From a virus: a stretch of DNA of 64,000 nt. The number at the start of each line of letters is the position of its first letter. The stretch's first letter is position 1. This document shows positions 1-21,183 of the stretch, in pieces. Location: the IMG/VR virus record IMGVR_UViG_3300020156_000448, positions 1-64,000 of that record; one strand, 5' to 3'. The notes below the pieces were generated by a model, which saw only the letters and a program-made list of their open reading frames with translations, ran no database searches and was not told where the DNA came from. A program made the translations under genes and the position numbers.

Positions 1-1566
1 TTATCCGTTGGCGGGAGCAAAAACTTGCTCAAGTGCAGCAATATCAAGCCCCAAGTTCCCCACGAGTGGAGGATTTTCAAAAAAGACCACTTCCCCTGCT
101 AGAGGAGGAACTGCGGGAGCTAGAGGCGCAGCGACTTGCTTTTTAGCCCGACGCCGACGCCTCTTTTTTTCAACAAGTTTCCCTTTTGGCTTGCAAAGCC
201 CACGCTCTACAAGGAAGGCAAACAAATAAGGATACTGGCTTGAAAAATTCTCTACAAACGAGCAGAATTTTGTTGAATCGCCCATATCGCATACTGACGC
301 TACGCCTGTTTCACAGAAATCTACTAGTGCAGAAACGAACTCAATATTCTTGAAAAACGCCTCTTTTTTCAGCGTTCCCTTAAACAGACGTATTTCAATA
401 GTCTGATTGCTATTCAGGTTTACAGCGGTATGATGCCCCTCTTCCCCAATCCATGCAGGGCGATTACGCTTTCCTGTCTTATTGCACTGGAAAGGAACAT
501 CGCATACACGCTTTGTTTTGGTAAAATTGTTGTATCTATTGCTAGCTCTTTGCGCAATTGTTCGTATAAACTTGCGATTGTTAGGGTTAGTAATAAAGTT
601 TACGATTTTGCCGATTTGTAGATTTGTCAAAGATGCTCGCGATACATGGATATGCATACCGCAATTATCCGTAAAGAAGCTGGAAAGCAATCCCTTTTCC
701 TCGAAAGCGTTAAAGAATAGCTCCCACTCTTTAATATGACGCTTATATGTAGCAGGTGCGCTAACAATCTCAAACCCACCACGCCCTTGATCTTTCAAGG
801 AACTATCATGTTTGCACAAGATGAATGGATTGGGAAAACAATCGTAAACACGCTTTGCAGCACGTTCACGAGTAAGGTTGTGATTATAATCAATCTCAAC
901 CTCAAGCTCAATGCCGAAAAATCTTTCGGAACCTTGCTTGCTAGCATTTAGCATTACTGGTGGACGATTGCCACGCGGAATGATTGCATGCCCTGGAATT
1001 CCCTTATTGTAAAACACCTTGCGCCCATCATCATCACGCATGAACGGATCATCCATCATCTGTTCAATTTTTGTGTGATAACTACGAACCATATTTTTCA
1101 TGCAACTACCACAACAACCATCCTGTAGGCGGTTGGCATGGAATGCCCCATGACAAATCGTACATTCTGTATACTTCGCTGCACAACCACCGCAATACCA
1201 ACGGTGACTAAACTTACGTGACTCAGCTTTGTAGTCTAAATTTCCGCAGTCATTACACACAATGAACTTTGTTTCGCGGCAGCCGCCGCAAGCATTAATC
1301 TTCTGCCTACCCTTTACGGTATAGGTGTCGATATAGATTTTTGCCATGCGTGAATCACAGCAAGAACAAACACTAAAATCCTGATCCTGACAATTAGCGC
1401 AGCAGGCAGTCAGCTTAAAGCCAACTGTGGTAAACCGAAGCCCATCAAGAGCAAAGTCCTGAGAGCATACACCGCAATTGAATTTCGTATTTGTAGTTGT
1501 GTGAGGCATACTTGTATTTAATCTTTCTTTCTGGTGCTGCTTATGATTACCTAGAAATAACATCAT
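1..1566 (-). CDS. Phage amidoligase (COOH-NH2 ligase type 2) with N-terminal multi-CxxC zinc-finger region
   Basis: Motifs FFGIELEVE, KHDSSL, GFEIVSAP, CGMHIHVS, TIEIRLFKGTL; eight CxxC pairs in the N-terminal 160 aa. True start may be MPHTT (~1509). Confidence 0.85.
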   Translation of the reverse strand: MMLFLGNHKQHQKERLNTSMPHTTTNTKFNCGVCSQDFALDGLRFTTVGFKLTACCANCQDQDFSVCSCCDSRMAKIYIDTYTVKGRQKINACGGCRETKFIVCNDCGNLDYKAESRKFSHRWYCGGCAAKYTECTICHGAFHANRLQDGCCGSCMKNMVRSYHTKIEQMMDDPFMRDDDGRKVFYNKGIPGHAIIPRGNRPPVMLNASKQGSERFFGIELEVEIDYNHNLTRERAAKRVYDCFPNPFILCKHDSSLKDQGRGGFEIVSAPATYKRHIKEWELFFNAFEEKGLLSSFFTDNCGMHIHVSRASLTNLQIGKIVNFITNPNNRKFIRTIAQRASNRYNNFTKTKRVCDVPFQCNKTGKRNRPAWIGEEGHHTAVNLNSNQTIEIRLFKGTLKKEAFFKNIEFVSALVDFCETGVASVCDMGDSTKFCSFVENFSSQYPYLFAFLVERGLCKPKGKLVEKKRRRRRAKKQVAAPLAPAVPPLAGEVVFFENPPLVGNLGLDIAALEQVFAPANG

Positions 1567-1632
1567 TATTCTGCTATTAAATGAGATTTATTACGTTTGG
1601 ATTTTTATAGCACCAGTCATATATGGAAAGGA

Positions 1633-2238
1633 TTAAAATTGGAGGTCGTCTGCGTCTTGGTAGCGACTCTTCAGCATGTGGCGAGTAACATCGTTACCAA
1701 CCCCCATCCACCTATAGAAAGCTACCTCTGCTGCCCTTGCTCGTTGTTCCCTTGGTGATTCCATATACCCATGGTTGCCGTTATCAGGCTCTTCATCAAG
1801 AAGATGAGCAACCTCATGAACTATGCTTAACTGCACCCCATCAGCATCCTGTCTACCATTTACTACAATGATAGGGTCATCTGCATTCACCTGAAACGGA
1901 ATTTTATTCTCTTCCGTTTCAATCCAGAAATTATCAATCTGCTCTCCGCCATGAACCAACGTAGAGTATACAATGTGTTCCCCGTGATAAAGAGGATGTT
2001 TTGTAACATATATATCTACATCTTGTACGTTCTCAATCTCATGAGGAAAGGCGGCATTCAAGAACTGGTTGGCAGCATTAAAATCCTGCAATTTAGCAGG
2101 TTCAAATAGCTGTGAGTTCTGGCTCGTAAATATGAGCTTTAAGGACTTAGCCGCCTTGGGGTCTAGAGATATTTCTCGGATGTTCTTCATAGTCTCCATA
2201 TTCAATATTGGATAGTCGCTTTCCTTCGCGATATTCAA
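1633..2238 (-). CDS. Putative zinc metallopeptidase (HExxH)
   Basis: SIVHEVAH followed by YMESPREQRA (possible third Glu ligand). Confidence 0.6.
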   Translation of the reverse strand: MNIAKESDYPILNMETMKNIREISLDPKAAKSLKLIFTSQNSQLFEPAKLQDFNAANQFLNAAFPHEIENVQDVDIYVTKHPLYHGEHIVYSTLVHGGEQIDNFWIETEENKIPFQVNADDPIIVVNGRQDADGVQLSIVHEVAHLLDEEPDNGNHGYMESPREQRARAAEVAFYRWMGVGNDVTRHMLKSRYQDADDLQF

Positions 2239-2310
2239 TATCTGTCTTTCCTATATATGTGCATTACATATAGATGGGCGTAGACGCGCTAAATGCGCGT
2301 GCTTGGTACG

Positions 2311-2340
2311 TGCGTAACACGCGCATGCGTAACACGCGCA
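2311..2340. repeat. Two exact tandem copies of 15-bp TGCGTAACACGCGCA
   Basis: Read directly; lies in a CG-alternating stretch (2277-2355) of the divergent intergenic region. Confidence 0.9.
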
Positions 2341-2436
2341 TTGAACACATGTGTTGGTAGCACATCAGAATAATTATTCCATTATCGTGTAGATAAGTTA
2401 AAACTTTATAAAAGTATTACTCAATTTGAGGACATC

Positions 2437-3138
2437 ATGCAGTTTGCAGCCCTACCTACCGTTGAACTTCCAGAAGACGTTCTAAAAAATATACAATTAG
2501 GACCAAAACGCTCCTATATCCGTCGCGAACCAGCCGTTCCATTTGACGACTTCTATGATACTATTGTCTTGCCCACAATGCAACATGTTGCAGCTAAAAA
2601 CATTAAAAAGAATATGGCAATGACCATATCTGCTTTGTGTGGATGTATAGACTTTCTACCAATACATCCCGACTATACTGGGACTACGAATCCGTTTCAA
2701 ACATTCTCTTCCTCATTAACTAGAAAAATGCTTCAGCCAGCTTACAGCGGGAAGAATCCAACAAAAGCCCAATCAGTAAAGCCTGCCACAATTGCTTTAG
2801 ATCAAACCACGATTCCTGTTCACCCTCAGCTAACACTTGAGCGCGGAGTGCCTAAAGCCATTATTGATCGCTTTGTGCAGTTGTGTAATAAATACCATAT
2901 AGATCACAGAATATTCACCCAAACGGGTGGTAGTATCACCTTGACAAAGAACTTCCTTATGGTTGTATCTTATTGGGCATCGGATCAAGGGTTAGAAGCA
3001 GACAAAAAAATATGGGGTAGCCTAAAACCTATGCGCTATGTTCCCACTAGATGGCTGGATGATAAAGACTTACCCGAATATATAAAGAAGAAAGTGAATG
3101 GCAGAAAACCAGGCAGACCAGCGAGAATAAAAACTTAA
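2437..3138 (+). CDS. Hypothetical protein with C-terminal AT-hook-like GRKPGRP
   Basis: 233-aa ORF, GAGG RBS upstream. Confidence 0.6.
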   Translation: MQFAALPTVELPEDVLKNIQLGPKRSYIRREPAVPFDDFYDTIVLPTMQHVAAKNIKKNMAMTISALCGCIDFLPIHPDYTGTTNPFQTFSSSLTRKMLQPAYSGKNPTKAQSVKPATIALDQTTIPVHPQLTLERGVPKAIIDRFVQLCNKYHIDHRIFTQTGGSITLTKNFLMVVSYWASDQGLEADKKIWGSLKPMRYVPTRWLDDKDLPEYIKKKVNGRKPGRPARIKT

Positions 3139-3272
3139 GACCCCTGTATTTATACTCGTTGACATGATCCCAGTAAGGTTCGATGATATTTGTTGTTCCT
3201 TAAATGAATATAATCGAATGTCGATTGTTTTTATGTTACACCCTCATCATATCCTGTTGGAGACCATTACGT

Positions 3273-4028
3273 ATGGCTGAAGTATCCGATTTACAAACCA
3301 CCACCCTAGTAACGAGAGGTTTTAAGAACCAGATCGTTGAGCAGTTGGGAGAATCCTTTGAAGAGCAGGCAGGGCTTTCTACAGATGCTGCTACTGAAGA
3401 AGACCAGTCTCTTGCTGCAATCATCCCAGTAGACCCCAAAGAGACAGAGCTTCTGGCTCTCGCCCAGCACGGCGACGATGAAGCCCTTACAGTAGTTTGG
3501 AAACTATACGAAGAGAAAATCTTCAATGCAGCGCTACGAATTCTCCGCGATTATGATGAAGCTGAGAATGTAGCCCAAGATGTATTTATTAAGTTTAAGA
3601 ACAACATCCATACATTCCAACTGGGTAAGTCGCCACTACCTTGGCTGAACCGTATTTGCAAAAACCATTGTATAAATATACTTAACCGCGCTCGTCGTCA
3701 CCCAATTAACTTGGTGGGATCAATTAGCGGTGATGATGCAGTCAACCAGGATTCTGAAACCTCTCAGTATTATGAGGCAGAGGATACGAGCACGCCATCT
3801 CCATTTGAAATTCTTTCAAAGCGCGAAGATATCGCCAATCTACGTCAGGCAATCACCCGCCTCCACAAAGATTTCCGCGACATCATTTACCTGCACTATA
3901 CTGAGGAATTACCATACAAGGTAATTGCTGAAAGATTAAACATCCCAATCGGCACAGTAATGAGTCGGTTATTCAATGCAAAAGCTAAGCTACGTGAGGA
4001 ATTTAAGAAGGTTGAAGCAGGGGTGTAA
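3273..4028 (+). CDS. ECF-type sigma-70 factor
   Basis: Region 2 (AENVAQDVFIK, WLNRICKNHCIN) and region 4 HTH (YKVIAERLNIPIGTVMSRLFNAK); GGAG RBS before ATG 3273; acidic N-terminal extension. Confidence 0.92.
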   Translation: MAEVSDLQTTTLVTRGFKNQIVEQLGESFEEQAGLSTDAATEEDQSLAAIIPVDPKETELLALAQHGDDEALTVVWKLYEEKIFNAALRILRDYDEAENVAQDVFIKFKNNIHTFQLGKSPLPWLNRICKNHCINILNRARRHPINLVGSISGDDAVNQDSETSQYYEAEDTSTPSPFEILSKREDIANLRQAITRLHKDFRDIIYLHYTEELPYKVIAERLNIPIGTVMSRLFNAKAKLREEFKKVEAGV

Positions 4029-4076
4029 CCGCGCCCAAAAAATAAGCACTTTTCTTTAGGGAAATGCTGAATTTAT

Positions 4077-4117
4077 AGTCCCTTAGCTAGTATGTAAGAT
4101 AGCTAAGGGACTTTTTT
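4077..4117 (+). terminator. Intrinsic terminator
   Basis: 13-bp stem AGTCCCTTAGCTA/TAGCTAAGGGACT followed by a T run. Confidence 0.8.
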
Positions 4118-4245
4118 GTTTTGTGCTTGTCCTAAAGCCAGAATATTTTTTTCACATTTAGTGCATTTGGTCCTTGACTTGGATCAGGAAATCCAAAATC
4201 CTAGCCAGCGAATCAACATGTCACCTTTGGGGGAGTACCCGCACT

Positions 4246-4614
4246 ATGGAGCAAACGAAACGCCGCAGCATTGTAGCGAAAGCTGTTCGAGAAGCAATTT
4301 TGAACGAAGACCCTGATGCTGTGGTTAAGCTCAAAACGAAGGAACCCGATTCCACCATTACTATGTTCGGGAAGCCTTTCACCATCCCCGAAGCTGAGCA
4401 GGTGGTCTCTAAGATTTACCACTCAATTGGGCTGGCGATCAATCTCTACGATATGATTAATGAGGTTGATACTATCAACGCTATTGATGAGCTTGTAGAG
4501 AATGGCACTATTTGCCTTCCTGAAGAAGAAGAGCAAGAAGAAGTTCCCCAGTACACACGTAGCTTGGATCGCGGATACTTCCCCACTCGTTCCTTAGATA
4601 GATTTAATAATTAG
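4246..4614 (+). CDS. Hypothetical protein
   Basis: ORF with GGGGGAG RBS before ATG 4246. Confidence 0.6.
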   Translation: MEQTKRRSIVAKAVREAILNEDPDAVVKLKTKEPDSTITMFGKPFTIPEAEQVVSKIYHSIGLAINLYDMINEVDTINAIDELVENGTICLPEEEEQEEVPQYTRSLDRGYFPTRSLDRFNN

Positions 4615-4649
4615 TGGAATAATCCCATGCCTCGTCTGTATTTATTAAT

Positions 4650-4856
4650 ATGAGTGACAGCAATTGCGATCACGTTGGACTGGATGTGGAATTTGATCAA
4701 GGAGAGTACACCTTTAAGTGTACAGCCTGTGATCAAGTGGTTCTTCGTGATCCCATTTTGCCTCGCGCATTATATCAAATAGACAGGATGACACTCATTG
4801 CATTACAAGTTGCTACCAGAAGACGACAAGTGGAGAGTATTGACACCGCAGGGTAG
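4650..4856 (+). CDS. Small putative zinc-binding protein
   Basis: CDH...CTAC; overlaps the next ORF. Confidence 0.4.
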   Translation: MSDSNCDHVGLDVEFDQGEYTFKCTACDQVVLRDPILPRALYQIDRMTLIALQVATRRRQVESIDTAG

Positions 4857-5337
4857 ACCCGTATCTGTTGAAGGCTTGACTGTCTTCACTAGGGCTGAAT
4901 CCATACAGCTTGCGGCATACCTTTCGAAACAAACTCCAGGTGTTTTCGCAGTTATGTATCTTGGTCCATGGCGCGGATGTATGAAGCATGTAATGTTCAA
5001 ATACCTTGTTGAAGCTGGCAGCATTGTTGATACATGGAATTTGGAAAACCCTGAGTATGATCCAACCTATCCAGTGAATGTATACTGGGTTCGTCGTCGT
5101 CGCGGGGGTGATCCAGGTGTCATCACTGGCAATGGTATTTCTACTCCTAAAAAGCCACGGGCGCTTACTCACCAGGAAAAGCGCAATGTTAAAAGACAGA
5201 AACAGCGTAAGAAAGAAGCCGCTAGATTTAAGAAGTCTCCCGAAGTACTGCGGGAAAGAGCAGATATCAGAAGACAGATTGCACGCTTCAGATTGAAGTA
5301 TAGCAAGCGGCAAGGACCAGTAGCAGAAGCAGTTTAA
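4798..5337 (+). CDS. Hypothetical protein with basic C-terminus
   Basis: 179-aa ORF ending at a terminator. Confidence 0.55.
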   Translation: MHYKLLPEDDKWRVLTPQGRPVSVEGLTVFTRAESIQLAAYLSKQTPGVFAVMYLGPWRGCMKHVMFKYLVEAGSIVDTWNLENPEYDPTYPVNVYWVRRRRGGDPGVITGNGISTPKKPRALTHQEKRNVKRQKQRKKEAARFKKSPEVLRERADIRRQIARFRLKYSKRQGPVAEAV

Positions 5338-5368
5338 GAGAGAGGGTTAATTCCCTCTCTCTTTTTTT
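5336..5368. terminator. Terminator between convergent genes
   Basis: Stem AAGAGAGAGGG/CCCTCTCTCTT plus T tract. Confidence 0.8.
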
Positions 5369-5375
5369 ATTGCTG

Positions 5376-6200
5376 CTATACGAATAAACCAGCATTCTGG
5401 CAAGTAGATGCTTCAACACATTTAATGTTAAGTTCTTTAAGAAGGTCTTTATAAAGCATGGTTTTTCTGTCACATACCTTTACAAGCTCCCGAAGTTCTT
5501 CATACGACAAATGAGCATATTCGCTGGGTTTCTTATTCAAAATTGTAACAGCTACATCAAACCGCTCATTAGAAATAGCGTGTTCTAGTAAAATGTTCCA
5601 AACCTTTACTTCCTTACCGTCGATCTTCTCGACGTTTCGAATTAGGGTTCCTCTCGACTGCTGAGTATATCGCTTCTCTAGAAGCTCGAACATCTTAGCA
5701 TCTGCATTAGCACAGGCTATCCCATACATATCAAAATTAACCGAACAACTGCGCTTGCCTGCTTTTATTAGACATAGCTCTGCTAATGCGTAGTGATTTT
5801 GGGCAATTGCAATGTATGCAGCTAGGTTAAATTGCATGGTTGGTTCTGCCCCAAACTTCATAACCAAAGCTTCAGCTACTGAATAATGCTTATGTTTTAC
5901 TGCTTCAATTAAAGGTTGTCCGTCTGCTATGTTTACATTGGCACCCCTTTTGCAAAGCACATATACAGTATCAAGGAAACCATCTTTGCACGCTTCGATT
6001 AAAGGATCACCGTTTGGATCAATTTTACACTGGGTTACTAAAAGCTCAACCACCCTAGGCTTGCGAAGCCTGATAGCTTCCATAAGTAAGGAGCGGTTGG
6101 CAAACGACATATCAAAGCCTGTTTTATAGGCGCTCTTAAGCTTTCCTAAATACTCGTTATAAACAGCATCAAGAACTTCTTTTTTCGTAAATCGTCTCAT
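5376..6200 (-). CDS. Ankyrin-repeat protein
   Basis: Repeats PLIEACKDGFLDTVYVLCKRGANVN and PLIEAVKHKHYSVAEALV. Confidence 0.85.
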   Translation of the reverse strand: MRRFTKKEVLDAVYNEYLGKLKSAYKTGFDMSFANRSLLMEAIRLRKPRVVELLVTQCKIDPNGDPLIEACKDGFLDTVYVLCKRGANVNIADGQPLIEAVKHKHYSVAEALVMKFGAEPTMQFNLAAYIAIAQNHYALAELCLIKAGKRSCSVNFDMYGIACANADAKMFELLEKRYTQQSRGTLIRNVEKIDGKEVKVWNILLEHAISNERFDVAVTILNKKPSEYAHLSYEELRELVKVCDRKTMLYKDLLKELNIKCVEASTCQNAGLFV

Positions 6201-10032: not shown

Positions 10033-10362
10033 TCACTCGCAATCGTTCAAATACTGCCGCCCGAATATCTCTTTAATGCCGCGAATCATTATTAAGCAAA
10101 GCTGATACAGTCCATAAACAATTCCCCCTACAACAGAGGCAACCAATAATGGCAAATAGCAAATAGCGCAAATAAAGGCAAACTTATTTATTGCAAAATC
10201 AAACTCTTCTCTCACGGCATGTCTTTTGCCTATTCCTGCCATGAAGATCACATACAGTAACGTAATAAAATATATCGCACTATACAAGCCTTGCGTAATA
10301 AAGTAAAGCCATTTCAAATACGGAAATACCCATACAAGAAAATCCCACATTAGTTCACGCAC
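10033..10362 (-). CDS. Small membrane protein (paralog group A)
   Basis: Two TM segments, CAICYLP motif. Confidence 0.7.
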   Translation of the reverse strand: MRELMWDFLVWVFPYLKWLYFITQGLYSAIYFITLLYVIFMAGIGKRHAVREEFDFAINKFAFICAICYLPLLVASVVGGIVYGLYQLCLIMIRGIKEIFGRQYLNDCE

Positions 10363-10673
10363 TCTTTCGTGGTCAGTTTTTTATAAAAAGCCTTAACTCC
10401 CTTAGCAAACACAATCAGATACGGGACAATCCAGCATACCGCATAAATCCAGTTTGTCTTAATATATTCAATCTCTCGATTGATATACTGTTCGTTTGTC
10501 ATATGCATGAGGTAGCCATTGCCATCTACTGCTTGATTTTGCAGATCGCCCTTGCCAAGCATATACAAAATCGTTACGAACTTAGCAAGAAACACTACAA
10601 GCACACAAGCTTGAATCACGCAAGCAAATAAGAATGCCAGTATTAACACAATCACTATAGCGTCTAAAATCAT
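10350..10673 (-). CDS. Small membrane protein (paralog group A)
   Basis: Two TM segments, YAVCWIVP motif. Confidence 0.7.
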   Translation of the reverse strand: MILDAIVIVLILAFLFACVIQACVLVVFLAKFVTILYMLGKGDLQNQAVDGNGYLMHMTNEQYINREIEYIKTNWIYAVCWIVPYLIVFAKGVKAFYKKLTTKECVN

Positions 10674-10969
10674 TTTACCATATCCTTAACTACCTTTACT
10701 GTTCCTACTAAACTCGATGCCACAAACTGCGCTACTGAGCCAGCAATTTGCCCTGCATTCTTCAGCCCATAATAAAGCCACGCAGCGGGAAAGCATATAG
10801 CGTACTTTAGGTAATGCTTAAGGTCTCTGATATGCTGACTATGATCCCTATGCGGATGAAGTCCCACACTGATGCATGTTATGGTAAAGAATATTAAGTA
10901 GATTACAAAAGCCGAAACTTGAATGATACAATACATAATAAGTAAGTCTTGCGCCCAATTTTGATTCAT
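10670..10969 (-). CDS. Small membrane protein (paralog group A)
   Basis: TM segments, YAICFPA motif; GAGG RBS. Confidence 0.7.
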   Translation of the reverse strand: MNQNWAQDLLIMYCIIQVSAFVIYLIFFTITCISVGLHPHRDHSQHIRDLKHYLKYAICFPAAWLYYGLKNAGQIAGSVAQFVASSLVGTVKVVKDMVK

Positions 10970-11208
10970 CTGTAATTTCCTCTTTTTATCCGTGTAAAGC
11001 CGAAAAAGACCCTAGTATAGAATCTTCTAACTTTCACTAATTATTCAATCGTTTTGATGTTTTCATACAACATTGATTCTAATAGACTTACATAAAACTT
11101 ACGCAAAATATGCAAAATATGCGTTTTTCAAATTCTTTACCCAGGTTTTCTCTAAGTGTTTATTAGTCAATAAGCTAGGCAAAACTCGTCATTTTATATT
11201 CAAATCTT

Positions 11209-11415
11209 TTAACGCTTCCGAAGAAGCGCCCTCGTGTTTCTCACTATACAAAAACAAAGTGCTAGAACAAACATTATCGGAATCATAAACAGCCAAGTTA
11301 TAAGATATCCAAACCACGAATACTCTGCCAAGATAATTTTTGTACCATCACGCATCTCATTCCATTTAAGTGAATGCCATAACTCTTGCTCTAGCTCTTC
11401 CAGATTTTCCGCCAT
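11209..11415 (-). CDS. Small membrane protein
   Basis: C-terminal TM segment; ATG in a TAATG overlap with the upstream stop. Confidence 0.6.
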   Translation of the reverse strand: MAENLEELEQELWHSLKWNEMRDGTKIILAEYSWFGYLITWLFMIPIMFVLALCFCIVRNTRALLRKR

Positions 11416-11591
11416 TAGTTCCAATACTTTCTATCTTTGTTCCACTTCGCCGCGCTCTTACACAACTGTTTTGGATTCTTCGCCATGCGGATAAATCGAA
11501 CTGTTGGAACAGGAGCAAAGATAAGACAAAAGATAGTTGTCCATGTAACGCCTAGAAAAGTGATAAACGCTATTGTCGCTATTACATTCAA
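11415..11591 (-). CDS. 58-aa membrane protein missing from the ORF track
   Basis: Hand-translated MNVIATIAFITFLGVTWTTIFCLIFAPVP...; TTG start in a TTGA overlap and stop in a TAATG overlap, filling the gap exactly. Confidence 0.6.
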   Translation of the reverse strand: MNVIATIAFITFLGVTWTTIFCLIFAPVPTVRFIRMAKNPKQLCKSAAKWNKDRKYWN

Positions 11592-12019
11592 TTGACAAAC
11601 CTTTTCACTTGCTCTTCTGCATTTCCGTCAAAGCGAAAACCAAACGTGATCTTCGCATACACTCTATCCAAAAAAGCGCAGTACGCATTTATCCGTCCTC
11701 TTACTACGCGGTGAACCTGACTTATTGAACCTAAAGAGACAAACACACTTCCCACACATTTTACCAGTCCTACTATAACCTTTGCGATTACGCAGTACAC
11801 AACGAAAAGCAGTGTCAAGACTGCCCACAGTACAACCACTGCCAAGCGTTGTCTTTCCTGCGTTTTTTCTAGCTCTACTTGACTCAGGCATAACAACGGT
11901 ATTACAACGATCATTACTAGTACGAAGATTACATAATAGAATGGATGTGCATTTACTTCTGTATATCCATTAGATAGTACTTGTGCTATATAGTGTGATA
12001 TGTCTTTAGGTATGTACAT
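11588..12019 (-). CDS. Membrane protein
   Basis: Two long hydrophobic segments. Confidence 0.65.
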   Translation of the reverse strand: MYIPKDISHYIAQVLSNGYTEVNAHPFYYVIFVLVMIVVIPLLCLSQVELEKTQERQRLAVVVLWAVLTLLFVVYCVIAKVIVGLVKCVGSVFVSLGSISQVHRVVRGRINAYCAFLDRVYAKITFGFRFDGNAEEQVKRFVN

Positions 12020-12054
12020 AGATTCTTTCTCTTTTGTTATACAATGCACTATAT

Positions 12055-12166
12055 GGAGTATTCACATGAATGTAGTGAATGGTATTCACATGAGTTATGC
12101 GAATGTATTCACCTGAACGTAATGAATGGTATTCACTTTCACCTGAGTTCTACGAATGGTATTCAG
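12055..12166. repeat. Tandem ~24-bp repeats with palindromic core (T)GAATGGTATTCA(C)
   Basis: GTATTCA at 12058, 12082, 12105, 12129, 12159; GTGAAT-GGT-ATTCAC is a perfect palindrome at 12075-12089. Confidence 0.85.
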
Positions 12167-12265
12167 TTGTTTTAAAAGATGTAGCGTGTAGGGATAAAAT
12201 ACATCTTTTCCTTGATATTGCTAGGGGTTAGTTTCCCAGCGTTCCCCCGTTTCCCGTTTTTCCGA

Positions 12266-12385
12266 TTAAAGTGGGTCTTCCTTCGCGATCACATCCTTTA
12301 AGATCAATAAAACAATCACAACCGCAGCGAGCATCACGCCTGTCCACTCCACTGCACCAAGAATCCTTTTGTATATACATCTCAC
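12266..12385 (-). CDS. 39-aa membrane peptide missing from the ORF track
   Basis: MRCIYKRILGAVEWTGVMLAAVVIVLLILKDVIAKEDPL; GTGA overlap with the upstream stop. Confidence 0.5.
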   Translation of the reverse strand: MRCIYKRILGAVEWTGVMLAAVVIVLLILKDVIAKEDPL

Positions 12386-12567
12386 CATCTGAAGTATTCC
12401 TTAACAGATTGCCATATTGTTATTGAACTAAGCATAATCATTGCGAGAAGAAACGCCTCGATATAAATGACCGCAAACTTTATCATGAACCAGTCAAGGA
12501 TTTGCAAAGGGGTCTTTCCCTTCCAGTGCTTTGCGTGGAAGGCGTTGTATACACCTTGGATGTTCAT
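12382..12567 (-). CDS. Small membrane protein
   Basis: One TM segment; ATGA overlap. Confidence 0.6.
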   Translation of the reverse strand: MNIQGVYNAFHAKHWKGKTPLQILDWFMIKFAVIYIEAFLLAMIMLSSITIWQSVKEYFRW

Positions 12568-12890
12568 TGCATGACCTGTGTGCTGGTGGTAACAACGCGC
12601 ACATTGGTTGTCACATTCTCATTCGGGACTCTAATGGGGAGATTGTGCGCGATAAAGATGTCTGTATAAGTGTCTGTCTCCACAAGCTTCACATCTCTGT
12701 GGGTGTATGTTGCTGTTTCCTGAAAAAATGCTCCGTATACAATAACCCCTACGCCGCCAACAACAATACACACAACAAGACCCATCAAGCCATTAAGAAT
12801 AACGTCTTCCCAGTCAATCTCATCGGCAAGCTTATCTATAAACCAATAGACAATGTTTTCCATAAACCATTTGTATGTTTGATTAATCAT
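12564..12890 (-). CDS. Small membrane protein (starts MINQ)
   Basis: One TM segment; shares its first 13 nt with the neighbouring gene. Confidence 0.65.
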   Translation of the reverse strand: MINQTYKWFMENIVYWFIDKLADEIDWEDVILNGLMGLVVCIVVGGVGVIVYGAFFQETATYTHRDVKLVETDTYTDIFIAHNLPIRVPNENVTTNVRVVTTSTQVMQ

Positions 12891-13129
12891 TGTACAATAA
12901 AGGTTTGATCACCGACCTCGATTTCTGTTCTGTCACTGTGCTCAATCACTGTGATATCTCTCAGCTTGTGAACCTTTGCGTCCTTCAATGCTTCCTTGAC
13001 ATTTTGATGATCAATATATGCTACCAGTCCCATCAAGCCAACAAAGATCGTGATGAAGGCTCCCATGAGTATTAAGGGGAAATGTCTATAAAAGAATCTT
13101 CTGATTGCGTTCCACATTTGATTAATCAT
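12887..13129 (-). CDS. Small membrane protein (starts MINQ)
   Basis: One TM segment; ATGA overlap. Confidence 0.65.
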   Translation of the reverse strand: MINQMWNAIRRFFYRHFPLILMGAFITIFVGLMGLVAYIDHQNVKEALKDAKVHKLRDITVIEHSDRTEIEVGDQTFIVQ

Positions 13130-13425
13130 AGGTACATTGGTGTCCCATTGATGATATATAGCATTGGCTCATAATCCCCGCCGCTTGTTGCCATGGGTAC
13201 ATAGTTCTCCCCCGACGCTTCGGACGCTGAGCTATTTTCTTGCGGCGACTGGCTGACTGACGTAAGAAGCACTATGAGTATTATGATTACAGGCAAAGGT
13301 ATGCAGAGAATAAATAGCAGTATTCCCCACCAGTCATGCGGCTCTTTACGCGCCAGATCACTGATCCTTGTGTTTTCATTCACCTGATAAAACCGTCTTC
13401 TCTCCATGCTTGCATACTTTCTCAT
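13126..13425 (-). CDS. Small membrane protein
   Basis: One TM segment (WWGILLFILCIPLPVIIILIVLL). Confidence 0.65.
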   Translation of the reverse strand: MRKYASMERRRFYQVNENTRISDLARKEPHDWWGILLFILCIPLPVIIILIVLLTSVSQSPQENSSASEASGENYVPMATSGGDYEPMLYIINGTPMYL

Positions 13426-13667
13426 TGAGTTAGTAAGTCCAGCTTTTGATCAATTGCTGCTCTTTGTTCTTGAAGGCGCTCAATTTGCTGCTGCTTACTT
13501 TTCCGTTTACAGCCGCATCCTTCAGGAGCAGTCATGACAATAATAGCAAACAAGCCAATGATTCCGAAGAAAAACACAAAGGGCGCTACTGCATGCCAAT
13601 CAATTCTGTTTTTAAGGTTTCTGAAATATGTAAGGGTCTGATGAACTGCATCTAGTTTCTTAGCCAT
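13422..13667 (-). CDS. Small membrane protein
   Basis: One TM segment then coiled-coil. Confidence 0.6.
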   Translation of the reverse strand: MAKKLDAVHQTLTYFRNLKNRIDWHAVAPFVFFFGIIGLFAIIVMTAPEGCGCKRKSKQQQIERLQEQRAAIDQKLDLLTQ

Positions 13668-14979
13668 TGTTTCCCACTGTTCCAATCCGTTTTCTTTGTA
13701 CGATCTGGCGCAACTCTGCTTCTGTTAACTCTCTCGTCCATGCTCTGCCTACATTGGGAGCAACCTGTGCAAAAGCATCATTTAAAGCCTGATTCAATTG
13801 CTGTTGAGATACTGCTTGTGGAAATGCGACTCCCTGCGGTCCTTGAGCCTGAACAGGTTCAGGCATTGCTGCTTCAACTGCATTTGGCGCAGGGAAGGCT
13901 GCTGGAGGCGGGGCATAAGCTGGAGCCACGTTGCGCGTATTATCGCTGTAATAAAAAGTCTCAGCAGGTTCTACGTTGCCAGCATAGGCTCTTCTAACGA
14001 TTTTCTCTGGTTTATCTTCGTTCTTTGGAGGATCAGGAGCTTTATATACCCACGGTGTACCATCACGGTTTAGCGGATTACCTTGCTCGTCGCTCCACAT
14101 TTCACAGTCTTGGACACTGCCATTACCAGGAGCTACACCCCAATAAATAGAAGGGTCTGTAATTTTTAGGCGGACTAATCCACTGCTGCACACTACGTTA
14201 TCTGGCGTCTCGCATGGCTTCTCAGCAAGCTCTTCACGGTACATTGTCTGAAAAGGAAAACTAAAACCTTTGCCGCTTTTGCTCGTCTTTTCAATCGATA
14301 CTTCACCAGTGTTTGGGAAAAACTCGACAACGCGACCCAACTGCCCATAATATAGAATACGGCGATTCTTCATTGCCTCTACATCATCTGCACTCGCAAT
14401 GCGTATTGGGAATGCCTCTAAAGCGCTCATAGTTGGCTCTAGAGCCATTTTAGCCTGACTTCTGTTACTATATGCGTTTGAGTACATTAAAAAGCCATCA
14501 TGGTACGCTTTGATGACGTATTGTTTCATAATGCATGTATCGCTTGGGCGGGGAGGCACATTATAGCGCTCTTTGCTGGGCTTTTGTCTTGTAAGGTGAG
14601 CCTCTTCAACAATCTCCACCTTAAGAGCATGAAGTTTGAATGGCTTGAAGTTATATTTATCTAAGTCGATAATCTCCATGTCGCTACAACCTTCTCTTGC
14701 AGGGAGCAGAGCATAAAGAGTATCTGTGCGGTAGCCAGCATTACGGGCAGTGTTGGTCTTTGGGGTATAAACACCCACTTCAATTCTGTTGCGGATACCG
14801 TTAGGAGATGCATTCTCACTAATAATGACAGTGCCCTTGTACTCGAAATTCTTCTCGATAAAATCTTTAGGGTCCAATTTAGCTTTCTTCTTTGTAGCTG
14901 AAATACTCACGTCTAAACTAACTTCCTCTGGAACTTCAATCTGAAATTCTGGTATATTTAAAATGTCTTCAATTGGCAT
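13660..14979 (-). CDS. Hypothetical protein with Pro/Ala-rich tail
   Basis: 439-aa ORF; no family recognised. Confidence 0.7.
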   Translation of the reverse strand: MPIEDILNIPEFQIEVPEEVSLDVSISATKKKAKLDPKDFIEKNFEYKGTVIISENASPNGIRNRIEVGVYTPKTNTARNAGYRTDTLYALLPAREGCSDMEIIDLDKYNFKPFKLHALKVEIVEEAHLTRQKPSKERYNVPPRPSDTCIMKQYVIKAYHDGFLMYSNAYSNRSQAKMALEPTMSALEAFPIRIASADDVEAMKNRRILYYGQLGRVVEFFPNTGEVSIEKTSKSGKGFSFPFQTMYREELAEKPCETPDNVVCSSGLVRLKITDPSIYWGVAPGNGSVQDCEMWSDEQGNPLNRDGTPWVYKAPDPPKNEDKPEKIVRRAYAGNVEPAETFYYSDNTRNVAPAYAPPPAAFPAPNAVEAAMPEPVQAQGPQGVAFPQAVSQQQLNQALNDAFAQVAPNVGRAWTRELTEAELRQIVQRKRIGTVGNNG

Positions 14980-15064
14980 TGATGATTTTCTCTTTAGAAT
15001 TACTTCTCTTGGCTATACACGCTGTCTCAGGTTTTATTCTAAGACAAATTTTATCCTATAAATA

Positions 15065-15095
15065 GAAAAAGAACTCCCCACTAGGGAGAGTTCTG
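15065..15095 (-). terminator. Intrinsic terminator downstream of the leader-tag array
   Basis: AGAACTC-CCC/GGA-GAGTTCT stem; A tract on plus = U tract on minus. Confidence 0.7.
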
Positions 15096-15179
15096 ATTTT
15101 TTCAAAAATCGAATCACCTATCGAACATTTATAATATTGTAATAACGGACGTTTTATACGATTACTTGATTTTATTATA

Positions 15180-15270
15180 GATACAGGCAACTAGTTAAAC
15201 GTAAAAATATTTTAAACGGGCAATCTTTATTAACGGGAAAATGATATTCTAAATGTCAAACGGGCAAACG
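15180..15270. repeat. Degenerate 17-bp-period repeats (AAACGGGCAA core)
   Basis: Core C at 15200, 15217, 15234, plus a further copy at 15261; AT-rich flank. Confidence 0.55.
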
Positions 15271-15369
15271 TACTGCTCCTGAACTGCGCGCTAGTCAGGG
15301 ATCGGCTATTCTAGACTAACCTCTCACGCTCTATATACATCATTATAATTTAATTTTCCTTTAAAGAAA

Positions 15370-15624
15370 TTATCTATAAATGGGGAAACCTGCATAATTA
15401 CCCATAGAGAAAGAATCACTACTTGTATTGTTTGTCGTAATAGTATAACCTGTCGATGTTGCGGTAATAGTATAGCCTGTAGATGCTGGTACATCTTCAG
15501 TATAACTCCAAGTATTGCGAATGCCGTATTTTTTGTCCATATCTCTAATATAGTCAACGGCGCTCTTTTTCGTAAAGACGACTCTGGCTGTTTGATTCGT
15601 ATTAATTAAGTCTTTAAGATTCAT
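15370..15624 (-). CDS. Leader-tag family protein
   Basis: Starts MNLKDLINTNQTARVVFTKK (GAGG RBS); internal 27-nt duplication STGYTITAT/STGYTITTN. Confidence 0.7.
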   Translation of the reverse strand: MNLKDLINTNQTARVVFTKKSAVDYIRDMDKKYGIRNTWSYTEDVPASTGYTITATSTGYTITTNNTSSDSFSMGNYAGFPIYR

Positions 15625-15907
15625 ATTTTTTGCCTCGTCTATAGTATTTAGAAAACGCTGGCTCAAGCCCACTAGTAGTTGTAGACATTGATTGCATAAG
15701 TACTTGTCTAGATGATGGCGCTGTTGCAGTTAAAGTCTTTCCTGCTCCTCGTCCAATCCTTAGTTCTGCCTGTTTATAAGTAACATCTTTAGCAAACAAA
15801 TCTCCATACATAGCTTTATAGTAATCTCTGAATGAATCTTCGTCACTGCGTTGCTTAACAAAGATAAACTTTACCGAATGATTTTCCACCAAATCTTTAA
15901 TTAGCAT
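15614..15907 (-). CDS. Leader-tag family protein with terminase-like and RNR-like fragments
   Basis: Leader MLIKDLVENHSVKFIFVKQ; then LRIGRGAGKT and TAPSS...TTSGLEPAFSKYYRR. Confidence 0.7.
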   Translation of the reverse strand: MLIKDLVENHSVKFIFVKQRSDEDSFRDYYKAMYGDLFAKDVTYKQAELRIGRGAGKTLTATAPSSRQVLMQSMSTTTSGLEPAFSKYYRRGKKYES

Positions 15908-15969
15908 CTCTGCTTCCTCTGATAGAGCCAACTACTTTATTGGTTCGCTTGCAGACAATATCTCCATTG

Positions 15970-16332
15970 TCATTTAAAAGATGGTTTCCCCAATTTGTCG
16001 TTAAATTCTCTTTGGTATCTCTCGTGCCAAGAAATCGGGGTCGCGGTGTTGCGGCGTCTGGCATTCCTCTCTTGCCTTCTCTTTCTTTTAAGTCTTTCTT
16101 TTCGGCGGTCCTCGACACCCTTAGACAGATTTTGCGGATGCAGAGGCACATGTATATATTGAGATTTTGCTGAATGTTTTTCGATCAAAGTAAATAAATA
16201 ATTCAAAGTCTTTGTGCTTAAATTTGCATAATCGGTATCTATGTCAGGAGGGTAATCAAGCGAATGCCAAATATCTTGTTTCTCAAAAATAATCTTTAAG
16301 TGATTATTGGTTATAGCGCTCTTAAGATTCAT
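15970..16332 (-). CDS. Leader-tag family protein with Arg-rich tail
   Basis: Leader MNLKSAITNNHLKIIFEKQ. Confidence 0.65.
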   Translation of the reverse strand: MNLKSAITNNHLKIIFEKQDIWHSLDYPPDIDTDYANLSTKTLNYLFTLIEKHSAKSQYIHVPLHPQNLSKGVEDRRKERLKRKRRQERNARRRNTATPISWHERYQREFNDKLGKPSFK

Positions 16333-16598
16333 ACGTAATCCATACCACTTGATAATTCGTGTACCTTAATCACTGCCATTATCATAAACCGCCATTTGAT
16401 ATCTTGGTCTTTAGCTGACTCTGCATACATTCTGGCGTGTACCGAATCGCCCTTCATTAAACATTGTATGCATTTATAAGCAGTCTCTACACTCTCTTGA
16501 TCGATATCATCGTCTTCTTCTACTAGAAGATTATAGCCTTGAATTGCTTGTTCGATGACCTTTTGGATCGATCTTTTAATTTCAACGTTCATGAACAC
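16329..16598 (-). CDS. Hypothetical helical protein (no leader motif)
   Basis: 89-aa ORF; ATGA overlap. Confidence 0.55.
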   Translation of the reverse strand: MFMNVEIKRSIQKVIEQAIQGYNLLVEEDDDIDQESVETAYKCIQCLMKGDSVHARMYAESAKDQDIKWRFMIMAVIKVHELSSGMDYV

Positions 16599-16661
16599 CT
16601 GCTACTGTTTTAATCCCGCAGAACCCCTAAAACTAGGTAAAACTTGGGTATACTTTAACTA

Positions 16662-16913
16662 CTATTTAATCAAGGCATTATTCGAAACGCTCTTATTTAT
16701 TATTTCTCTACAACTAGGGCATAGATAATCTGTGCCAATTAGACGAAACTCGTAACCGTCTTTAAGCCGACATCCGAAGCAAGGAATCTTGCTAAACTTA
16801 ATCTGTATACAATGACCTTTCATCACTGTTTCAAGCGGCTGCTTATTTAGGCTCATATGTGAAATGGCAGGTTTTTGAAACTTTTTAGCGATACGTGTTA
16901 ATAGTGATTTCAT
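16662..16913 (-). CDS. Leader-tag family protein with C4 zinc finger
   Basis: Internal PLETVMKGHCIQIKFSK followed by CFGC...CPSC. Confidence 0.6.
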   Translation of the reverse strand: MKSLLTRIAKKFQKPAISHMSLNKQPLETVMKGHCIQIKFSKIPCFGCRLKDGYEFRLIGTDYLCPSCREIINKSVSNNALIK

Positions 16914-16914
16914 C

Positions 16915-17202
16915 TTAATAATCATTCAATGCGTCAGGATAATTTTCTTTAAACCATTCTTGCAACTCTTTGGCATCGGCGTGGTTATCATCTAGCAGAA
17001 ACCTATACATATACCTACATAAGGAAACGCTAAAGCGCACATCTTCTGGCTTAGAAAGAACAGGGACTTTTCGATCAAAGTTCTTTAAAAATTTACCAAC
17101 AGTTTCATAGGTCTTCCAGAAGTGAGCCTCTAAATGCCAGCCCTCTTTAGTAAAGATAACTCTTACTGACCTATGAGCATAATTTTTAATACTATTTGCC
17201 AT
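16915..17202 (-). CDS. Leader-tag family protein
   Basis: Leader MANSIKNYAHRSVRVIFTKE. Confidence 0.65.
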   Translation of the reverse strand: MANSIKNYAHRSVRVIFTKEGWHLEAHFWKTYETVGKFLKNFDRKVPVLSKPEDVRFSVSLCRYMYRFLLDDNHADAKELQEWFKENYPDALNDY

Positions 17203-17440
17203 TAAAGTATATGTTCCTCAGTATTTCTTCATCCTCAGTTTGTTGGATTGAACGCTTAGCATTTATTTGCGCTCTATCTACTATATAAAACCGCCTTGCC
17301 TTAATTTCACTTAGGCTAATTTGAGGATTTGCACCGATTTGAAAAGTCGGAACAAGGAAAGTGCCTTCAGGCTGTTCTTTAGTAAAGACAAAATGTATGG
17401 AATGGCTTTGCAATATCTGCAAAAAGTTGTTGCTTAACAT
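17192..17440 (-). CDS. Leader-tag family protein carrying a major-capsid-protein-like fragment
   Basis: Leader FLQILQSHSIHFVFTKE, then VPTFQIGANPQISLSEIKARRFYIVDRAQINAKRSIQQTEDEEI, which I recall as resembling HK97-fold capsid proteins of large phages. Confidence 0.7.
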   Translation of the reverse strand: MLSNNFLQILQSHSIHFVFTKEQPEGTFLVPTFQIGANPQISLSEIKARRFYIVDRAQINAKRSIQQTEDEEILRNIYFNGK

Positions 17441-17453
17441 GTGTTACATTTTC

Positions 17454-17506
17454 CTAAATAAAAAAGCTTATATACATGTATATCTTGTATATAAGCTTTT
17501 ATTTAG
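17454..17506. terminator. Long AT-rich inverted repeat (terminator/regulatory hairpin)
   Basis: AAAAGCTTATATACA-N9-TGTATATAAGCTTTT, extendable by CTAAAT/ATTTAG. Confidence 0.65.
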
Positions 17507-17513
17507 AAAAATT

Positions 17514-18233
17514 TTAATCTAGTGGAGAAATAGTAACAACTTCTTTTAGTAGGTCGAAATACTCATCTGATCCTAAGGCTGGAAAATCTGCTTCTCTCCC
17601 CTGCGATTGCCATAATTTTAATAACTCATCATCTAATGCAAGCCTTAAAATATCTACCGCCAACGCGGTATAGTGCTGGATTATCTTCGCGTCTTTTTTA
17701 TCAAACTCCATCTCATCTAGCTTGAATGAAAGAACTTCATAAGCGCATCTTACAACCTCTTCGTCTAAATGGAGATTATCAGGATGGCTGCGCGGCGGAC
17801 CTGTGAGCCGAATAAAATGATTCATTTGGTCATGAGCATAATTCAGCCTCTCAATGCTCTCTTTTTCTGAGAGAGGAATAGAGGGACCATCCACCACTAA
17901 ATCCTTCTCAAAGACAGCATATCCATCTTCAAAATTTCTAAAGATAATGGCTTTCGTCTTAGTCAGGCGGTAATCCCGATTTAGGTACATAAATATGCCT
18001 TTCGTAAATAGTGTATTACGAAGACATTCTTTAACCTTTGCGTCTCGTTCTTGTTTTAGTTTTTGAATCTTCGCTAGCGCAAGCTCAGCAGGCTGCTTGG
18101 GCTTTGGAAGTCCAGGTGGCTCTATAAACGTCACACTTACTTTGTGTGACGCGCAAAGGTTGCGAAGTTTGCCAGTTTGCCTGAATCTGCCGAAGAATCT
18201 CGCTTTGGTAGTCATTATGCCTTTCTCTTTCAT
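17514..18233 (-). CDS. Leader-tag family protein (long form)
   Basis: KLRNLCASHKVSVTFIE near the N-terminus. Confidence 0.65.
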   Translation of the reverse strand: MKEKGIMTTKARFFGRFRQTGKLRNLCASHKVSVTFIEPPGLPKPKQPAELALAKIQKLKQERDAKVKECLRNTLFTKGIFMYLNRDYRLTKTKAIIFRNFEDGYAVFEKDLVVDGPSIPLSEKESIERLNYAHDQMNHFIRLTGPPRSHPDNLHLDEEVVRCAYEVLSFKLDEMEFDKKDAKIIQHYTALAVDILRLALDDELLKLWQSQGREADFPALGSDEYFDLLKEVVTISPLD

Positions 18234-18256
18234 TTAGATACAAGGCAGCTTTTATT

Positions 18257-18637
18257 TTATTCTTCTTTTAATGCGGTATAAGCGCTAATCGCATTCGTTA
18301 ACAGCGCAGTAGCCTCTGCTGAAAAATCATAATCTTTCTGACTCGCTATAAAATGATAAGCCAAGTTGTAAAAGTGCGTTTTAAGAACTTTGCTGTGCTC
18401 TGAATATAAAGAAGAAGCATGAATAATACTCTTTAAATTTTCATCGACAGGAAGTTCAATGGCAGCAAAAAACATGAGTGTCCTATGAATTTCACCATAC
18501 ATAGGAAGAATCATATCGTGATGCCCTGAAATACAGATTATATCCATGCATTGAACATAATTTTCATAAAAATCAGGAGTATACTCTTTAGAAAATATAA
18601 ATTTTACATCACCATTATTGCATAAATCTTTAAGCAC
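18257..18637 (-). CDS. Leader-tag family protein
   Basis: Leader MLKDLCNNGDVKFIFSKE. Confidence 0.65.
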   Translation of the reverse strand: MLKDLCNNGDVKFIFSKEYTPDFYENYVQCMDIICISGHHDMILPMYGEIHRTLMFFAAIELPVDENLKSIIHASSLYSEHSKVLKTHFYNLAYHFIASQKDYDFSAEATALLTNAISAYTALKEE

Positions 18638-18972
18638 TATATATCCATACCAAATGAATCGTTAATAGCATCGTCCAACTCGTCATCTTCCGCAAAGATA
18701 ATACTAAGCTCTTCTTCCGTAAGATCGGAATTTCTAAGCTCATAGATAGTTGATGCAGGAATAAGGGAATCTGGCATGTCTTTCTCACTGCGCTTCATAT
18801 CCCACAGTTCCTTTGCTACTTCTGCTGCTTTCCTATCTTCTTCTGCTGGCATCATGTCGTGGGTATCTGGACTCCACACTGTATCTGTCGTACCATCAGG
18901 AAATGTAATCAAATATTCGTGACCTGTCAAGCCACTTGTTCTACCAGTTCTATTAACTCTTAGCGCCATCAC
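18637..18972 (-). CDS. Acidic hypothetical protein
   Basis: Asp/Glu-rich 111-aa ORF. Confidence 0.6.
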   Translation of the reverse strand: MMALRVNRTGRTSGLTGHEYLITFPDGTTDTVWSPDTHDMMPAEEDRKAAEVAKELWDMKRSEKDMPDSLIPASTIYELRNSDLTEEELSIIFAEDDELDDAINDSFGMDI

Positions 18973-19225
18973 TTGCTGCTTTCAATATTTCCTTAATGCG
19001 AGTAGCCATTTTATCAGAACCAGCTTCCTCAGCGGGTATTGGCTCTACTACGATTTCATCACCACTAACATAGCACTTAAACGAATCGCCCTCTTCAAGC
19101 TGATAATTTCTAAAGGAGTTTTCTTCTACTTCTGAAGTGAATGAATGCCCTGCGCTATCAATAAGCGTGATAATAGCAACATCTTCCTTATATTGCTGCA
19201 AGCAGCCACGAAAACAAAAACTCAT
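18953..19225 (-). CDS. Hypothetical protein (small beta-barrel-like)
   Basis: Likely start MSFCFRG at 19225, which avoids overlap with the upstream gene. Confidence 0.55.
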   Translation of the reverse strand: MSFCFRGCLQQYKEDVAIITLIDSAGHSFTSEVEENSFRNYQLEEGDSFKCYVSGDEIVVEPIPAEEAGSDKMATRIKEILKAASDGAKS

Positions 19226-20688: not shown

Positions 20689-21183
20689 TTATTTTCTCAG
20701 TCTCTCTCTGACTTTCATCAGAATTTTACCAAGATGGTTTTCTCCAGAACCATCACCACTACAATAATCCACTTTGTTTCCACCGCAGTAGCAGCATCCG
20801 TAAAAACGGTCATGCCAATAATTGCCCTCTTCAATATATGTGTCTCCAGTACCAACCAAAATATCAGCTAATTCTGGAAAAGTTTCAAATTTTGTCTGAA
20901 CCAGGACTTCCATGTACTGAAGATTTACGTCTTGCCAGTCTGGACGTACCAACCCCGCATCTCGTAATCGAGACCCCTCTTTTTTAGAATCTCCAGCAGA
21001 CATTGCTGCAATTCGCTTGCGTTCTAAATGGTCTGTACTTTTTAGGGCTTGGTACAAAGATTCGGTATTATTGGCTTGAAGAGCTTCAAACCCATCCTCT
21101 GTTATGATCAAAATGCCATTGCATGAATAAAAATTAGAGAAGCATGAATATGCCCCTCTAAAATTTTTAATCTTATCGTCCAT
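20689..21183 (-). CDS. NADAR (YbiA-like) family protein
   Basis: FSNFY, ESLYQALK, RPDW, LVGTGD..IEEGNYWHDRFYG, GENHLGKILMKVRE. Confidence 0.92.
   Translation of the reverse strand: MDDKIKNFRGAYSCFSNFYSCNGILIITEDGFEALQANNTESLYQALKSTDHLERKRIAAMSAGDSKKEGSRLRDAGLVRPDWQDVNLQYMEVLVQTKFETFPELADILVGTGDTYIEEGNYWHDRFYGCCYCGGNKVDYCSGDGSGENHLGKILMKVRERLRK

Follow-up and report, generated by a model that had tools for sequence, protein, structure and literature searches.

The closest described counterparts of the gene analysed here are a fragmented ribonucleotide reductase (RNR) gene and the internal proteins of the T-even phages. According to the available part of the first report (PMC3045599), a phage nrdA is split by a mobile element and the pieces still make an enzyme. 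As in that case, a piece of an RNR large subunit is found here as a separate small phage ORF. However, the pieces described there sum to the whole enzyme. The record analysed here encodes an intact RNR at another locus, and the piece found is diverged, of short length and attached to an unrelated leader. The accessible text of PMC3012670 describes, for the proteins inside the T-even capsid, a capsid targeting sequence as a constant leader on varied small proteins. A conserved short N-terminal leader, diverse small proteins and a large phage are shared with the present locus; in contrast, the leader studied here is unrelated in sequence and has no protease site, and no prohead protease was found in the incomplete record. 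Keyword searches of open-access text found no leader-tagged fragments of core proteins. Going by its sequence, the mini-gene belongs neither to the RNR family nor to that of the terminases; it resembles the mosaicism known from phages, and its likeness to fragmented phage RNR genes is one of outline only.

The mini-gene comes from a large soil phage. The window, that is the whole stretch of DNA that was analysed, comprises the first 64 kb of a 125,053-bp IMG/VR provirus record with a CheckV completeness of 76%, and from about 10 kb onward almost every gene in the window is located on the minus strand. An earlier note on this DNA had described a chimeric mini-gene consisting of a leader, a terminase-like Walker A piece and an RNR motif, the latter two acquired by successive capture. 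The ORF at 15614-15907 with its 97 aa, both peptides quoted for it and the quoted peptide of the large terminase (TerL; residues 111-125 of a 655-aa ORF) were all recovered as that note had given them; the TAP...SGLEP...YYRR stretch corresponds to residues 62-91 of the mini-gene protein. The features needed in the following are:

15614 to 15907, minus strand: mini-gene (P0001), 97 codons plus TAA stop; ATG at 15907, stop at 15614-15616
15915 to 15919, minus strand: ribosome-binding site GAGGA, 7 nt upstream of the mini-gene ATG, from direct reading of the sequence
15614 to 15624, minus strand: overlap of 11 nt between the mini-gene stop and the start codon (ATG) of the family gene that follows (15370-15624)
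15842 to 15907, minus strand: leader, residues 1-22, common to five neighbouring genes, from an HMM of the other five members and an alignment
15761 to 15841, minus strand: middle part, residues 23-49, matching nothing and having no recognisable relative
15623 to 15760, minus strand: RNR-like segment, residues 50-95, the collinear counterpart of resident class II RNR residues 476-517 (P0002 numbering)
15734 to 15754, minus strand: heptad GRGAGKT ('Walker A-like'), residues 52-58, at the N-terminal edge of the RNR-like segment
15370-15624, 15614-15907 (mini-gene), 15970-16332, 16915-17202, 17192-17440 and 18257-18637: members of the leader family, from the leader alignment
15370 to 15624, minus strand: downstream paralog, 84 aa, with a weak collinear RNR-like stretch
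17192 to 17440, minus strand: capsid-fragment paralog, whose cargo matches the major-head-protein family phrog_2522
15070 to 15094, minus strand: terminator-like hairpin (stem of 10 bp, then a T run), some 275 nt past the last gene of the array
57598 to 59565, minus strand: resident large terminase, 655 aa, phrog_2 at E 7.9e-14, with the Walker A heptad GRRSGKT at 59191-59211

The in-frame codon score of the mini-gene was 0.286, compared with a mean of 0.31 (sd 0.064) in 55 long genes of the record, and all five other frames scored negative. Its RNR-like half scored 0.176, with one opposite-strand frame close behind (0.165); off-frame windows of 48 codons were free of stops in 101 of 5000 cases. 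Judged from these signals the mini-gene is a real small phage gene with the codon usage of the phage, and it is apparently translatable. The sequencing runs listed comprise one DNA run, which may be from the source sample, and no RNA run. AlphaFold2 on the six-row family alignment gave a mean pLDDT of 49.6, which is unusable; a search of the ESM Atlas with residues 48-97 reached a top score of 0.87, under the lead threshold of 0.9, and a complex prediction of P0001 with residues 90-640 of the resident RNR scored 0.01 against a mark of 0.32, a value that speaks neither for nor against binding.

The mini-gene stands among six consecutive small genes with a common N-terminal leader of about 22-30 residues. 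Using a leader HMM built from the other five members, the mini-gene was found at E 5e-6 with 22.8 bits among 1852 six-frame ORFs. Because an HMM of its five neighbours recovers its N-terminus, the mini-gene can be regarded as a member of a six-gene tandem leader family, and the claim of a composite gene with a shared leader and foreign-looking cargo was borne out. When each of the six members was omitted in turn, it ranked right behind the five training members (1852 ORFs), and the best non-member in the search for the mini-gene had an E-value of 0.19. On no further ORF of the record did the leader HMM find a leader (next best E 0.7). Similarity at the DNA level among the family members is limited to the coding leader, with none extending upstream. 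Past the leader the six paralogs show no mutual similarity (shuffle p > 0.12 in 15 of 15 pairs), and relatedness among their cargo regions was rejected on this result.

A second member of the family carries a recognisable cargo. Residues 27-75 encoded at 17192-17440 match positions 123-171 of 318 of phrog_2522 (E 6.1e-8), a family matched nowhere else in the record. This paralog has the same design as the mini-gene, with about 50 residues of a conserved core protein placed behind a leader of the family; it differs in that the cargo belongs to another family and is seen by a curated library (E 6e-8), while a subfamily profile is required to see the RNR piece. Because this match stands beside the RNR piece of the mini-gene, at least two of the six cargos are, by their similarities, scraps of conserved core proteins. 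In the downstream paralog, residues 31-59 aligned with positions 66-93 of the RNR fragments (hhalign P 0.0089; hmmsearch E 2.8), and the pattern KKYG.RN...P.S....T.S.G occurs where it is collinear with the RNR segment. This stretch is a weak match, and we treat it as a lead only.

Within the array some further features were observed. In the downstream paralog 27 nt are duplicated in tandem (15432-15485). Between the gene for a 239-aa protein (17514-18233) and the capsid-fragment mini-gene there is a perfect inverted repeat of 15 nt with a loop of 9 nt (17462-17500), which may be a regulatory or terminator hairpin within the array. The 87-aa ORF at 16662-16925 (minus strand) has no N-terminal leader; it contains two CxxC pairs (weak zinc-finger match, E 0.01) and, internally near residue 40, a leader-like stretch.

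For the analysis of the RNR-like segment a profile was built from 118 fragments cut around the SGIEP motif of the 120 best relatives of the resident RNR, two of which lack the anchor, and all stop-to-stop ORFs in the six frames of the record with a length of 30 aa or more (n=1852) were searched with all filters off. The profile matched residues 50-95 of the mini-gene at E 7.7e-5 with 19.2 bits (1852 ORFs), a value from a test aimed at a family picked after its motif had been spotted, for which an agnostic correction would cost orders of magnitude in E-value. The resident RNR was recovered at E 1e-94, and the next ORF after the mini-gene had an E-value of 0.22 (1852 ORFs). Of 20,000 shuffles of the mini-gene protein with its composition kept, none attained 19.2 bits (maximum 11.7), and the best of 1852 reversed ORFs reached 5.5 bits. 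Comparison of the mini-gene with the RNR fragments by hhalign gave a probability of 91.4 and P 9.1e-7; the same comparison for four other members of the leader family, performed as a control, gave P 0.28-0.65. With an HMM of full-length RNRs (79 sequences) the mini-gene ranked first behind the true RNR at E 0.0033 among 4650 ORFs of at least 15 aa. In nine distantly related phage loci with 2739 ORFs the RNR fragment profile found nothing better than E 0.73. Because the score stands far above background in each of these comparisons, from the profile search and the shuffles through the decoys and paralog controls to the nine phage loci, the resemblance of residues 50-95 to RNR appears real and well beyond chance, and in this respect the earlier description of a stretch like the RNR large subunit was confirmed.

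Pairwise comparisons showed a similar pattern. A BLAST HSP to the mini-gene protein was obtained from 119 of the 120 RNR relatives, compared with 1-10 HSPs per 120 for ten controls (the reversed mini-gene protein and nine proteins encoded nearby), the best of which were scattered. The location of the HSP was identical in the eight RNRs inspected, and in at least 92 of the 119 it ended at query residue 93-94. The matches comprise 36-46 residues with 39-49% identity, and the mini-gene is locally and collinearly similar to the GRRN / TAP.GS / SGIEP / RRKK segment of RNR. Among the RNR columns with at least 90% conservation 11 of 18 were matched, versus 7 of 27 other columns (Fisher p 0.03); this is about the pattern expected for neutral decay of a captured fragment, so that selection on the RNR residues is not proven.

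The resident class II RNR (821 aa; record positions 78916-81378) is intact, and a search of the record with PF02867 matched a single ORF of 831 aa. Its nearest solved relatives are the B12-dependent RNR structures of T. maritima, PDB 1XJK and 1XJE. In a single BLAST comparison residues 59-94 of the mini-gene aligned with residues 484-516 of the resident enzyme (P0002) with 14 of 36 identities at E 0.001, and phmmer of the mini-gene against the ORFs of the record listed the RNR at E 0.14. Kept in the mini-gene are G478, R479, A488, P489, T499, S501, G502, E504, P505, R513/R514 and K515/K516; R480, N481 and G491 are substituted. At the nucleotide level no similarity to the resident RNR gene was found, the best word-7 blastn match being 11 nt long with E 0.61, and by BLAST score against the mini-gene the resident RNR ranked only 81st of 119 RNRs. 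Because of these two results the RNR piece is not taken for a recent copy of the resident gene, and its capture would be old or from another lineage; the earlier suspicion of an old or foreign origin therefore holds for this piece.

The likeness to the class II RNR alpha chain consists of the collinearity of residues 50-95 with residues 476-517 of the resident enzyme, but the rest of the barrel is missing. Residues 1-58 alone gave no RNR signal (-1.6 bits with the RNR profile). The aligned part covers family positions 476-517 only, and the catalytic centre N296-P297-C298-x-E300 is absent. Because 45 of about 820 residues (<6% of the enzyme) are present and the catalytic motifs are missing, the product, to judge from its sequence, is not an enzyme and cannot reduce nucleotides. 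In the curated libraries the mini-gene had no RNR match (Pfam and NCBIfam at E<=10, PHROGs at E<=0.1, PDB phmmer at E<=10), and PF02867, which describes a barrel of roughly 500 residues, did not match it at E up to 10. An antibody chain (E 0.18) and weak hits to Thioredoxin_8 and PAZ were the sole matches in these libraries.

We consider it probable that the mini-gene is a small gene of the leader family that once captured a single contiguous piece of a class II RNR alpha chain, now present in diverged form as its last 45 residues. The captured piece would span the GRRN turn, the TAP.GS loop, the SGIEP strand and the Y.RRKK stretch of a B12-dependent RNR. Illegitimate recombination would have placed about 135 nt of an RNR gene, in frame, after the leader module, either long ago or from a distant donor. 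The capsid-fragment paralog at 17192-17440 provides a precedent for such a capture within the family. As a tentative suggestion, the leader might be the common working 'handle' of the family, and the RNR-derived tail might be either a displayed conserved RNR peptide, acting as bait or mimic, or a neutral filler that stays open because the operon is translated.

A reading with captures in succession, of a terminase Walker A fragment and then of the RNR fragment, starts from the heptad GRGAGKT. It is identical in 5 of 7 positions to the heptad of the resident TerL, which is carried by 10 of the 18 TerL-family proteins listed; the pattern G[RK]..GK[ST] is rare, with three sites in 122,290 aa of six-frame ORFs, and hhalign aligned residues 49-69 with TerL at P 0.0023 (probability 12.6). 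However, a TerL profile from nine insertion-free relatives of the resident protein reported the mini-gene at E 17 with 1.5 bits, as number 54 of 1532 ORFs reported (1852 searched), BLAST of the mini-gene against the resident TerL gave E 5.4 (589 window ORFs), and TerL was absent among the phmmer matches of the mini-gene to the ORFs of the record at E up to 5. Searches of Pfam, PHROGs, NCBIfam and PDB assigned no terminase family to the protein. The canonical Walker A pattern [AG]xxxxGK[ST] occurs at 12 sites elsewhere in the record but is not matched by the heptad. Unlike the Walker A region of the resident TerL (phrog_2, PF27249), the heptad is without flanking similarity, none being found outside about 10 residues, and neither a Walker B nor a further ATPase motif could be aligned in the mini-gene. 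The same residues are moreover taken in by the RNR alignment, which in HMMER begins at residue 50 and places the G-R of the heptad on the invariant G478-R479 of the GRRN turn; residue 50 is also the start of 17 of the 119 BLAST HSPs to RNRs. Over the heptad the register of this alignment is uncertain, since hhalign starts at residue 59, MAFFT and HMMER differ by one residue and the HMMER posteriors are about 0.5. Because no terminase piece is detectable and the RNR alignment covers the same residues, the evidence points to one capture and not two, and the simplest reading of GRGAGKT would be the degenerate start of the RNR piece plus a chance GKT. The proposed terminase-derived piece, and with it the idea of two unrelated core-gene motifs acquired in succession, was thus not upheld, and we regard two captures as very unlikely. 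A cargo consisting of one known domain had been named as an outcome that would speak against the chimera: the recognisable cargo is indeed one contiguous RNR segment, but residues 23-49 match nothing. Somewhat less improbable, though still unlikely in our view, is a chance resemblance in an ordinary orphan small protein that has no RNR ancestry. It would agree with the shortness of the match (36-46 residues, 39-49% identity), with the blindness of the curated libraries to the RNR piece and with the choice of the tested family after the motif had been spotted, but the background distributions described above, from the shuffles and reversed decoys to the 2739 ORFs of the nine loci, all remained far below the score.

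The segment could also be the remnant of a decayed second RNR gene that lies within an ORF by happenstance. A second weak RNR-like stretch, at 11369-11551 on the minus strand, matches positions 375-402 of the RNR HMM (E 0.016); yet it is located downstream on this strand and matches an earlier part of RNR, which breaks the collinearity of the two. This stretch has a codon score of -0.02, no other RNR-like piece was found in 4650 ORFs, and the segment in the mini-gene stands in frame behind a leader conserved in the family, all of which makes a decayed gene highly improbable. Descent of the entire family, leader included, from a tandemly amplified RNR fragment would account for those BLAST alignments to RNRs that reach back to residue 15-25 and for KKYG.RN at the collinear place of the downstream paralog. 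It is opposed by the score of residues 1-58 alone given above, by hhalign of the N-terminal family profile against RNR (P 0.087), by the failure of the leader HMM to list the RNR ORF at E up to 100 and by the mutual dissimilarity of the cargo regions, and we give it hardly any weight. A further alternative takes the leader for an address tag of the T4 capsid-targeting-sequence type and the family for packaged, injected proteins. A T4 prohead-protease site needs Glu at the leader-end position; S/T-K-E ends three of the six leaders, but that of the mini-gene ends V-K-Q. The layout, in which small proteins that are otherwise unrelated carry one constant leader at their N-termini in a large phage, is as in the available part of PMC3012670, but no S77 or S78 prohead protease (PF03420, PF04586) was found in the record, which is 76% complete by CheckV, and such a tag is quite unlikely here. 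A broader proposal, which we put forward as unlikely but worth stating, is that large phages repeatedly build 'handle plus bait' mini-proteins, in which a lineage-specific tag is joined to re-coded conserved peptides of core proteins (RNR, capsid), for use in phage-host or phage-phage conflict. Such proteins could act by titrating a peptide-recognising factor or by disturbing the folding or assembly of a rival's core proteins, and the mini-gene would then be one independent instance. One point speaks against a decoy for known sensors: according to the available part of the preprint 10.64898/2026.01.04.697583, Avs sensors characterised to date envelop entire folds, and they do not target RNR, a term with 0 occurrences there.

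Phage genomes are mosaics, and their small orphan genes are mostly without a traceable origin. If the single capture favoured above is correct, part of the origin of one such orphan can be traced to a fragment of a core metabolic enzyme, placed in frame behind the leader of six genes. The RNR piece and the capsid-fragment mini-gene would fit a design of a shared tag plus a conserved core-protein peptide. Should this design be selected, it would point to an undescribed class of small phage proteins that show conserved core-protein peptides on a common tag; should it be accidental, it would be a clean example of new small phage genes arising from scraps of old ones. The correction matters in itself, in that the evidence is for one capture and not for the proposed two-step capture.

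Relatives of the mini-gene protein were searched at several levels. A word-indexed search (lengths 53-170 aa) returned one candidate, the protein itself, and phmmer over 1.84 billion representatives gave four matches at E<=0.001, namely the protein itself and three long repetitive proteins, which match in 7-10 stretches each and were judged to be repeat artefacts. Pattern scans with 8-mers confirmed no relatives in viral contigs (0 of 24 stretches), metagenome contigs (0 of 596) or genome contigs (0 of 422). No match to cultured phages was obtained by blastn with positions 15000-19000, and the proteins encoded at 13660-14979 and 17514-18233 had no relatives in viral contigs. The nine phage loci used above each contain a relative, 33-40% identical, of the 164-aa protein encoded at 20689-21183; none of their 2739 ORFs bore the leader (best E 0.045, from a match at the C-terminus of an ORF) or the RNR fragment (best E 0.73).

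Insertions were noted in both enzyme families. Among the 120 RNR relatives 33 are longer and contain large insertions, located near residue 298 (27), at 187-189 (4), 265 (1) and 149 (1), with one sequence having a further insertion at 595. An origin of the segment from an intein or homing element was rejected, all of these insertions being outside 476-517. The 27 insertions near residue 298 of the resident enzyme adjoin the catalytic NPC.E site, and the resident gene itself is free of insertions. Among the relatives of the resident TerL listed, 8 of 17 lack a contiguous Walker A heptad and are 937-1017 aa long, and six of these eight have a LAGLIDADG match; in a ninth relative (P0135, 980 aa, also with a LAGLIDADG match) the insertion is situated directly behind the heptad. 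This suggests inteins at or adjoining the P-loop of these relatives, the resident TerL gene being uninterrupted.

The RNR-like stretch at 11366-11551 (minus strand) comprises 28 residues that resemble the W...C..GRR.G.GI..LG region of RNR; it lies in a short ORF overlapped by others and may be due to chance. Positions 1-6200 of the window encode an amidoligase-domain protein, a sigma-70-type factor and an ankyrin-repeat protein on mixed strands at a higher GC content (about 43%); this region could belong to the host flank or form a phage module of its own. The array and a 439-aa orphan are followed immediately downstream by eight consecutive small ORFs of 80-153 aa (10033-13685, minus strand), which are very hydrophobic and look like membrane proteins.
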